A stretch of 5,577 bases of DNA, taken from sequence record KX266300, one strand, 5' to 3'. Each line of letters starts with the position of its first letter. Position 1 is the stretch's first letter. Of the stretch, positions 4 through 4,553 are shown piece by piece. The notes beneath the pieces were generated by a model. That model made no database searches. It was not told where the DNA came from and worked only from the letters and a program-made list of their open reading frames with translations. The stretch comes from Enterobacteria phage ID11. The translations under genes were made by a program, and so were the position numbers.

Positions 4-33
4 TTGACTAATACTCAATCACCACTCTAATAT
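4..33 (+). promoter_or_regulatory. Candidate sigma70 promoter upstream of A (P_A-like), in the H-A intergenic region
   Basis: -35 TTGACT at 4-9, an 18-nt spacer, and -10 TAATAT at 28-33 (4 of 6 to consensus). The predicted start near 40 would exclude the ATG at 32 and include the GGAGG SD and ATG 59. The weak -10 makes this tentative. Confidence 0.3.
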
Positions 34-58
34 GCCTCCCATCAAACGGAGGCTTTTC

Positions 59-1723
59 ATGTTTAAAACACATTCTGACTACTTTAATAAACCTAACATC
101 GACGCTATCAAACCTCTCGTCGAAACTGCTGGTATGTCTGTTCTTACTCAATCCCCAAACCTCCGTATCTGGAAACAGTGCAATACTCGCATTAAACTAC
201 TGGAAGAAATCCTTGCTCACTACACAAATGGTATTCGCCGTGACGACAATGGTGACTTCTGGATGAATCCCAACTCTCAACTCGCAACCACTATCGCCTA
301 TCGTGCCCACCACAAAGGCCATAACCCTAAATTCAAACAATATCCAGAATCCTTTACTCTGGATGACATTATTACTGGTAAACCAATCCCTCAATCTGCC
401 CCTGACGAATTACAACTCTCCGATGAAATCGGTGAAGACTATCGCCTTACAGTCCTCTCCATAATCGAAGAATTGCAAGAATGCTACGACGTGCTCGGAC
501 AACTTGATATTAATAACACTATAGACCACAAACCCCTCGGTAATGACCACTGGGACTTACTCTATGAAAAACCCGTTTACAAACACTGGTATCAACTCGT
601 ATCAAAACGACCCCTTAAAGATATCCGCGCCGATTACAACTATGCAAAGGCGAAGGGTGTTAAGGATGAATGCTCAAAAATCTTGGAGGAATCAACTATG
701 AAGTCTCGACGTGGCTTTACCGTTCAAAGATTAATGAATGCTATGCGTACTGCCCACACTCAGGGCTGGTATGTTGTATTCGATACTCTTACTCTAGCCG
801 ATGACCGCTTAAAGGATTTCTATGATAATCCCAATGCTCTCCGTGACTACTTTCGTGATATTGGTCGTATGGTGCTTACTGCCGAGGGTCGCTCGGTGCA
901 TGACTCATCTGCCGACTGCTATCAGTATTTTTGTGTGCCAGAGTATGGTACACAGCACGGTCGTCTACATTTCCACGCAGTGCATCTTATGCGCACACTT
1001 CCTTTGGGCTCTCTGGACCCTAACTTCGGTAAGTTGGTACGCACTAATCGGCAAATAAATAGCTTGCAAAACACGTGGCCTTATGGTTACTCTATGCCCA
1101 TCGCAGTCCGGTACTCCCAAGATGCATTCTCTCGCGCTGGCTGGCTCTGGCCTGTGGACTCAAAGGGTGAACCCCTTAAAGCTACCTCGTATATGGCTGT
1201 AGGCTTCTACGTTGCTAAATACGTTAACAAAAAATCAGATATTGACATGGCCGCAAAAGGCCTAGGGAATAAAGAATGGAACAATTCACTCAAAACCAAA
1301 ATCAACCTCATACCCAAGAAAGTGTTCAGAATACGAATGTCCCGCAATTTCGGAATGAAACTGCTATCAATGTCTCACCTGTCAGCGGAAACCCTGATGG
1401 AACTGACCCAAGTGGGTTACGACGTGACCCCGTTCAACAACATCTTGAAGCAGAACGCCAAGAAAGAGCTCAAATCGAGGCTGGCAAAGAAATCTGTCGC
1501 CGACGTTTTGGAGGCGCAACCTGTGACGACCAATCTGCTAAAATTCATGCGCAATTTGACCCGAACAATCGGAGCGTCCAGCCTACAGAGTTTTATCGCT
1601 TCAATGACCACGAAATTAACAAGTACGGATATTTCTGATGAAACCAAAAACTACGTTGCTGCTGCAGGAATTGCTGTTGCTAACTTACGAATTAAATCGA
1701 AGTGGACTGCTGGTGGAAAATGA
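59..1723 (+). CDS. A: Replication initiation protein A (HUH rolling-circle endonuclease), 554 aa
   Basis: Translation aligns along its whole length with phiX174/G4 protein A as I recall it. HUH motif HFHAVH is encoded at 968-985 and the paired catalytic tyrosines (YVAKYVNK) at 1208-1231. GGAGG Shine-Dalgarno at 48-52 sits 6 nt before ATG 59. The ORF-track start at 32 is an in-frame upstream ATG with no SD. TGA stop 1721-1723 overlaps the C start codon (ATGA). Confidence 0.92.
500..529 (+). other. Viral (+) strand origin of rolling-circle replication; predicted A-protein nick between G506 and A507
   Basis: Exact match to the 30-bp origin CAACTTGATATTAATAACACTATAGACCAC conserved among phiX174-like phages (from memory). 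It lies inside gene A and encodes [10 protein letters not shown]. The A protein is known to nick CAACTTG/ATATT. Confidence 0.9.
698..1723 (+). CDS. A*: Protein A* (N-terminally truncated A from an in-frame internal start), 341 aa
   Basis: In-frame ATG at 698 opens the sequence MKSRRGF, which is where phiX174 A* begins. A strong SD GGAGGA at 685-690 lies 7 nt upstream inside the A coding sequence. The length matches phiX174 A*. Expression is inferred, not shown by sequence. Confidence 0.55.
1276..1638 (+). CDS. B: Internal scaffolding protein B, 120 aa
   Basis: Complete ORF nested inside A in another frame. Translation (MEQFTQNQ ... [15 protein letters not shown]) is clearly homologous to phiX174 B, including the conserved C-terminal FYRF..GYF. 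Weak SD AGGGA at 1264-1268. Confidence 0.9.
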
Positions 1724-3883: not shown

Positions 3884-3892
3884 CGCAACAAA

Positions 3893-3998
3893 GGCCGCCC
3901 CTCTACTGGTCAGATACCTGCCCAATGTGGGGCGGACCGTGCCTACGGAGACACCCGAGTCTCCGATACATGGACGGCGAAAGCCGCCGTCCCTACTG
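3893..3998 (+). other. Complementary (-) strand origin, G4-type: three stem-loops plus a CTG primase start site in the F-G intergenic region
   Basis: The 136-nt F-G spacer (3884-4019) holds three hairpins readable from the sequence: 3893-3901/3929-3938 (9 bp with one bulged A, 27-nt loop), 3946-3952/3959-3965 (7 bp, 6-nt loop) and 3972-3979/3985-3992 (8 bp, 5-nt loop). CTG at 3996-3998 follows the last hairpin. The reverse complement of 3972-3997 is AGUAGGGACGGCGGCUUUCGCCGUCC, which matches my recollection of the G4 primer RNA 5' end. Confidence 0.7.
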
Positions 3999-4019
3999 CA
4001 AAGCCAAAAGGACTAACAT

Positions 4020-4553
4020 ATGTTCCAGAAATTCATTTCTAAGCACAATGCTCCAATTAACTCTACTCAGCTTGCTGCTACTAAAACCCCGGCTGTCACG
4101 GCACCTGTTTTATCTGTGCCTGACTTAAGCCGCTCTACTATTCAAATCAATGCAACAACCACAGCCGTTACAACTCATTCAGGCTTGTGCCATGTTGTTC
4201 GCATTGATGAAACAAACCCAACAAATCATCACGCTCTATCTATTGCAGGTTCGTTGTCAAACGTCCCTGCTGATATGATTGCTTTTGCCATTCGTTTTGA
4301 GGTCGCTGATGGCGTCGTTCCTACTGCCGTTCCGGCCTTATACGACGTCTATCCAATCGAAACCTTCAATAACGGCAAAGCAATCTCATTTAAAGATGCT
4401 GTTACCATCGACTCACATCCCCGCACCGTCGGTAACGACGTTTATGCGGGAATTATGCTCTGGTCTAACGCTTGGACCGCCTCTACTATCTCTGGCGTCC
4501 TCTCTGTTAATCAGGTAAACCGTGAAGCAACCGTCCTTCAACCTCTGAAATAA
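4020..4553 (+). CDS. G: Major spike protein G, 177 aa
   Basis: N-terminus [10 protein letters not shown] and C-terminus ...[18 protein letters not shown] match phiX174 G (MFQTFISRHN ... LQPLK). The interior is divergent but collinear, as expected for the host-range spike. SD AAGGA at 4008-4012 lies 7 nt before the ATG. Confidence 0.92.

Follow-up and report, generated by a model that had tools for sequence, protein, structure and literature searches.

Bases 500–529 of the genome of coliphage ID11 almost certainly form its ori(+), the viral-strand origin for rolling-circle replication that phages phiX174 and G4 also carry; judged from the sequence, we place the probability of this reading at about 96%. 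Observed directly are the identity of the 30-mer, its uniqueness, its reading frame, its extreme conservation at the DNA level, and an enzyme with the catalytic motifs, and every sequence-level defining feature that we tested was found at this site. The phiX174/G4 origin in a phage of the G4 species, at G4 coordinates, is already known, and there is nothing new in the element itself. The gain is one of annotation: ori(+) is unmarked in both the ID11 record and the G4 record V00657 (the latter annotates the complementary-strand origin only), and both can confidently be given an entry for it, in ID11 at 500–529 with a predicted nick at 506/507.

The window, by which we mean the whole stretch of DNA analysed, is the complete 5577-nt genome of ID11 (an Enterobacteria phage; Bullavirinae, Gequatrovirus G4). 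It is 99.9% identical over its full length to the ID11 record AY751298 by megablast, with three base differences at 2361, 2578 and 2615, all far from the origin, and no database record matches it exactly. The first of these differences (C2361G) lies in overlapping genes, giving A129G in D and P70A in E, the second (C2578T) is in the J–F intergenic region, and the third (A2615G) gives T6A in F. The original G4 sequence (V00657) is 96.7% identical to the window, collinear with it, and shares its coordinate system. The features discussed here are as follows.

500–529, + strand: ori(+), the probable 30-nt viral (+) strand origin of rolling-circle replication, CAACTTGATATTAATAACACTATAGACCAC; an exact and unique match, identical to phiX174 and G4
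500–509, + strand: left domain, the putative cleavage/recognition decamer CAACTTGATA; a 10-nt invariant run whose core, C-N-ACTTGAT, is kept in distant microviruses
506–507, + strand: predicted nick, G506/A507, where A protein would join the 5' phosphate of A507; by homology to phiX174
510–516, + strand: A/T-rich spacer TTAATAA, origin positions 11–17; carries most of the natural variation of close relatives
517–529, + strand: right domain CACTATAGACCAC, origin positions 18–30, presumed duplex-binding; unique in the genome and holding the longest invariant run (517–528)
59–1723, + strand: gene A, the initiator endonuclease that would act on its own internal origin; annotation of AY751298 and Pfam Phage_GPA
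698–1723, + strand: A* coding region, from an internal start; annotation of AY751298 and V00657
968–982, + strand: HUH metal-binding motif HFHAV, A residues 304–308; located in the A translation
1208–1225, + strand: YVAKYV, A residues 384–389, with putative catalytic tyrosines Y384 and Y388 (YxxxY); equivalents of phiX174 Y343/Y347

The original prediction of a conserved 30-bp (+) origin inside gene A is borne out by an exact copy of CAACTTGATATTAATAACACTATAGACCAC at 500–529 on the + strand, in frame with the gene (CAA CTT GAT...), where its codons specify Q148–H157 counted from the ATG at 59. The 30-mer has a single occurrence in the window; 200 shuffles yielded no match to it, even when three mismatches were allowed. 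Neither half recurs: no other site in the genome lies within one mismatch of the left half CAACTTGATA or within two mismatches of the right half CACTATAGACCAC. The window thus holds the single copy expected of a phiX174-type ori(+); a second copy in the genome would end synthesis early.

The same 30 bases are found, 30 of 30 identical, at phiX174 4299–4328 and at G4 500–529, and phage Lilleput is likewise identical. Substitutions at positions essential for cleavage, which would have spoken against an origin, are absent, all 30 positions being those of phiX174. The phiX174 RefSeq record sets its rep_origin, 'origin of viral strand synthesis', at 4306, corresponding to A507 of the window, and a 2026 saturation-mutagenesis preprint describes cleavage and religation at G4305/A4306 inside the 30-nt ori+ of phiX174 (10.64898/2026.07.25.740675). 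Because both positions map onto the identical 30-mer, the nick in ID11 is predicted to fall at G506/A507, and window bases 506 and 507 are G and A. Homology therefore supports reading the element as a rolling-circle origin, through the 30/30 identity with the phiX174 and G4 30-mers and the correspondence of rep_origin 4306 with 507. With a 331-nt query around the origin, the BLAST alignment to phiX174 extends only to record position 4328, and in alpha3-type phages window 500–529 alone aligns.

The sequence also points to a cognate enzyme, with its catalytic motifs present, in ID11. The A protein matches Phage_GPA (PF05840) in Pfam with E = 3.9e-60, and the HUH motif, the tyrosines and the origin peptide (Q148 versus Q107) are all displaced from their phiX174 counterparts by a constant +41 residues. 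The phiX174 HUH residues H263/H265 are named in the preprint (10.64898/2026.07.25.740675), and the catalytic role of Y343/Y347 is given there and in a review (PMC5714925). No solved structure of an A-type initiator was found in the PDB. The A* start lies 169 nt downstream of the origin, so that only full-length A is encoded across it. An in-frame ATG at 32 would add nine codons (window 32–58) to the gene A ORF upstream of the annotated start at 59.

It is very improbable that the 30-mer is the relic of an origin, or that ID11 starts viral-strand synthesis at another site and retains these bases for packaging or for control by protein C. Inhibition by protein C does require an intact ori+ (10.64898/2026.07.25.740675), which points to roles beyond nicking, and the ID11 nick site is assigned by homology. 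A relic is nonetheless hard to reconcile with a 30/30 match to an experimentally defined origin, with the fact that neither half recurs in the genome, with the retention of all catalytic motifs in the A protein, and with the same 30-mer in G4, whose genome is 96.7% identical and collinear.

The conservation of these bases was examined in relatives of ID11. An initial set of 20 IMG/VR genomes had been fetched by the origin motif itself, so that its invariance there is circular and proves nothing alone. Relatives were re-selected by the catalytic motifs of A* only, which do not overlap the origin, and this gave 21 IMG/VR contigs: the original 20 together with a new circular genome, L056 (IMGVR_UViG_3300020045_001231). 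Twenty of the 21 bear one of two 30-mer types, and the frame and place of the element are the same in all 20 and in L056. The L056 origin, CAACTTGATATATTAGGCACTATAGACCAA, has the form CAACTTGATA-TATTAGG-CACTATAGACCA-A, with both halves intact and only positions 12–17 and 30 changed. A metagenome scan, in which 78 loci were picked by A* motifs and which was dominated by phiX174 copies, added one lineage, represented by L124 (CEUP01049914.1) and L130 (CEUY01487740.1), with A* identity of 44–45% and the origin CGACTTGATTTAAATAACACTATAGACCAC, changed at positions 2, 10 and 12. The L056, L124 and L130 origins all keep the G/A nick dinucleotide and positions 18–29. Six further loci (L113, L115, L126, L128, L131 and L132) come from contigs that are truncated or have about 1x coverage; they lack the origin region and were not scored as negatives.

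When the codons of 21 gene A sequences are aligned, 73% of the columns are variable, and the codons flanking the origin are highly variable among relatives. Within the gene, 517–528 (12 nt) is the longest stretch of nucleotides without variation, 500–509 ties with 1627–1636 for second place (10 nt), and among the 1264 30-nt segments of gene A in this alignment those starting at 499 or 500 have the fewest variable columns (8). The amino acid is invariant at 98 degenerate codon columns, 12 of which use a single codon throughout; these 12 comprise 6/6 such columns in the origin versus 6/92 elsewhere (hypergeometric P about 9e-7, which is not an exact probability, as the sequences are phylogenetically related and the columns share one tree). 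The 1627–1636 run immediately precedes the stop of B and the start of K (1638), and may represent the gene K translation-initiation region in the A/B overlap.

These patterns bear on whether the 30 bases are kept for an essential A peptide rather than as a cis-acting DNA site, an explanation that we regard as highly unlikely. The phiX174 and G4 groups and Vibrio phage PG19 share a conserved peptide here, and it is with this peptide that BLASTP starts to align distant A proteins, as a peptide under selection would predict. Selection on protein does not, however, account for the frozen synonymous sites (six of six origin codons), nor for a leucine that is always CTT, one of its six codons, and an aspartate that is always GAT, even at about 30% protein identity. 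Alpha3 (QLDNSNTIDH) and L056 (QLDILGTIDQ) moreover alter the peptide and keep the DNA halves, the alpha3-type changes being non-synonymous (I to N and N to S). In phiX174, synonymous mutations in these codons are detrimental, nine of them falling in A codons Q107–D115 (10.64898/2026.07.25.740675), which by arithmetic from the phiX174 gene A start at 3981 are origin positions 1–27. H116 (positions 28–30) is not among the codons for which the preprint lists synonymous changes as detrimental, in agreement with the natural variation at position 30.

Because the synonymous sites are frozen, the alpha3 changes are non-synonymous and the flanks are variable, we take DNA rather than peptide to be the primary target of selection, and the origin function of the DNA is the dominant constraint on the bases that also encode Q148–H157. 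The proposal that two codes overlap here is independently confirmed by the frozen synonymous sites. The origin shows clearly how a cis-acting DNA signal within a gene can take precedence over free codon choice, which matters for recoding or 'decompressing' microvirus genomes and for reading synonymous changes in ID11 evolution experiments.

In a model attributed to Baas, Fluit and Jansz, the origin has three domains: a decamer for recognition and cleavage, a spacer rich in A/T and, on the right, a binding sequence; work by van Mansfeld et al. in 1980 is said to be the basis for calling the left decamer the 'recognition sequence'. Following work of the 1980s, we take the domain boundaries to be positions 1–10, 11–17 and 18–30. 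Across Bullavirinae-like genomes and PG19, natural variation occurs at origin positions 2, 10–17, 21 and 30, and positions 1, 3–9, 18–20 and 22–29 are invariant. The spacer reads ATAGTAA in the alpha3 type, TATTAGG in L056, and TAAATAA in both L124 and PG19. The right domain diverges in distant lineages, and the left core is retained there. This pattern matches the three-part model and lends it indirect support.

Bases A507–A509 and the spacer together make up ATATTAATAA (507–516), the longest A/T-only run of gene A. The claim that the origin is the sole AT-rich island in its part of the gene holds locally, in that no other 30-nt segment between about 354 and 714 equals its AT-richness; it is overstated across gene A, where 82 of 1636 such segments (5%) are as AT-rich or more, in about eight clusters (for example, with starts at 59–73, 320–331, 1204–1221 and 1266–1283). 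That the A/T-rich block is instead a transcription signal, an internal promoter or terminator in gene A, is scarcely credible: TATA-like strings are present (TATTAATA and TATAGA), but a consensus scan of 380–720 on both strands gave no promoter-like or terminator-like site, there is no significant secondary structure (z = -0.91), and the conserved flanks that are not A/T-only (CAACTTG and GACCAC) are unneeded by a -10 box.

No hairpin was found at the nick site: the 470–560 segment folds as ssDNA with -6.2 kcal/mol (z = -0.91), 35 of 200 shuffles fold as well, and the centroid structure leaves the origin unpaired. Inverted repeats around the origin are weak ones only. An imperfect pair at 499–509/590–600 (ACAACTTGATA / TATCAACTCGT), 80 nt apart, includes the left decamer; being only 82% complementary, it was judged to be a chance match rather than a functional hairpin.

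In phiX174, the duplex is cleaved only when RF I is negatively supercoiled, and unwinding is driven by the host's Rep helicase. By analogy, the A protein of ID11, an HUH endonuclease, would bind the right part of the 30-mer on supercoiled replicative-form DNA, after which the A/T-rich middle of the origin would open. A would then cut the + strand between G506 and A507, with Y384 or Y388 becoming esterified to the 5' phosphate of A507, and the free 3'-OH of G506 would prime rolling-circle synthesis, carried out by DNA polymerase III and the Rep helicase of the host. Once a round is complete, the second tyrosine would cut the regenerated origin and the first would seal the displaced strand into a circle. 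It is from work on phiX174 that we infer where the nick falls, that A is covalently linked, that supercoiling is needed, which host factors take part and what each of the three sub-domains does, and the two-tyrosine cut-and-seal cycle is described in the review (PMC5714925) and the preprint (10.64898/2026.07.25.740675).

G4 itself belongs to the same species, has the same 5577-nt coordinate system, and carries the identical 30-mer at G4 500–529; there is no difference in the origin. The viral-strand origin of G4 and its cleavage by phiX A protein were reportedly mapped in 1978–79 (Fiddes, Barrell and Godson; van Mansfeld et al.). The phiX174 ori(+) shares the identical 30 nt, the gene A frame (Q107–H116), the position upstream of the A* start and the initiator type, but flanking gene A has diverged, BLAST aligning no more than about 68 nt (85% identity) around the origin; the two A* proteins are about 79% identical, and ID11 A is 41 residues longer at its N-terminus. 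In the alpha3/St-1 group the origin, CAACTTGATAATAGTAACACTATAGACCAC, is 28/30 identical and in the same gene A frame and place, but it has two substitutions in the spacer (position 11, T to A, and position 14, A to G) that change the peptide to QLDNSNTIDH, and its A* identity is no higher than about 52%.

In many other HUH/Rep origins the nick site is in a hairpin loop in intergenic DNA. Unlike these hairpin-type origins, the ID11 ori(+) is without a significant hairpin and is inside the coding sequence of its own initiator. The same separation of binding and nicking, a tyrosine-linked 5' end, and a 3'-OH primer are seen with pT181/pC194 plasmids, Ff gene II, and the geminivirus/circovirus nonanucleotide (PMC5714925). 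In the phiX174-type initiator, the two tyrosines permit continuous re-initiation (PMC5714925).

Vibrio phage vB_VpaM_PG19 lies outside the recognised subfamilies (PMC9431446) and shares 42% identity with ID11 in the A protein. At 375–404 of its genome (L141, OM055665.1) it has CTACTTGATATAAATAACACAATAGACCAC, 27/30 identical to the ID11 origin and in frame in the rep gene. Between the rep genes of PG19 and ID11 no nucleotide match is better than this one (26/28), and the protein alignment of the two phages starts at the origin peptide. We saw no reference to an origin in the paper describing PG19 (PMC9431446), and a single-protein search of IMG/VR gave no close relatives of the PG19 Rep.

An alignment-based search using Rep motif I yielded 17 more divergent IMG/VR contigs, some of them close relatives of each other. 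The core C-N-ACTTGAT occurs exactly once in 10 of the 17 (L152, L160, L161, L163–L167, L169 and L170), on the coding strand, at a distance of 190–340 nt upstream from motif I and in frame in every case, where it reads [Q/R/L]-L-D with leucine always CTT and aspartate always GAT. It is absent from the other 103 kb, and 0.07 occurrences would be expected by chance in this zone. In these 10 contigs the right half of the 30-mer has diverged, and the core is absent in the other seven of the 17 loci. Simple searches recognised no origin-like motif in several pequenoviruses, among them KP087943, KP087947, KP087950, KP087951, NC_026665, two Ciona contigs and two Manatee Spring contigs.

We tentatively suggest, at slightly less than even odds, that A-type rep genes far outside the Bullavirinae also carry the in-frame core C-N-ACTTGAT(A) as an ancient feature, which is present in PG19 (27/30) and in pequenovirus-like and other uncultivated microviruses at 27–39% Rep identity (versus PG19 A*), with the right half diverging along with the protein. 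This wider conservation is a lead and not a demonstrated rule, and may already be published. If true, it predicts the so-far unannotated ori(+) of PG19, pequenovirus-like phages and uncultivated microviruses, and it would support a modular origin in which the left half is read by a conserved catalytic site and the right half co-evolves with a lineage-specific duplex-binding surface. The nick-site core could then serve as a simple means of predicting origins in uncultivated phiX-like microviruses.

As for the other replication origin, the F–G intergenic region of the window (3884–4019) is 134/136 identical to G4, whose record annotates a primase RNA primer at 3970–3997 and the complementary-strand origin at 3998, which together indicate that the window also carries a G4-type ori(-).

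Several database records retrieved in these searches merit a comment. Many of the metagenome loci (among L060–L136) derive from FUFK010037421.1, a 327,964-nt contig with dozens of head-to-tail phiX174 units, in which the copies retrieved lie at intervals that are multiples of 5386 nt; a spike-in concatemer or an artefact of assembly is the most likely explanation. The record of Mycolicibacterium phage J1 (MZ417522.1; 24,953 bp) contains phiX174-like sequence with matches across the origin region, and that of Protaetiibacter phage SSC1 (MT947439.1; 5386 bp) is phiX174-like and of phiX174 genome length; both look like phiX174 contamination or chimeric assemblies, and not like phages of those hosts.
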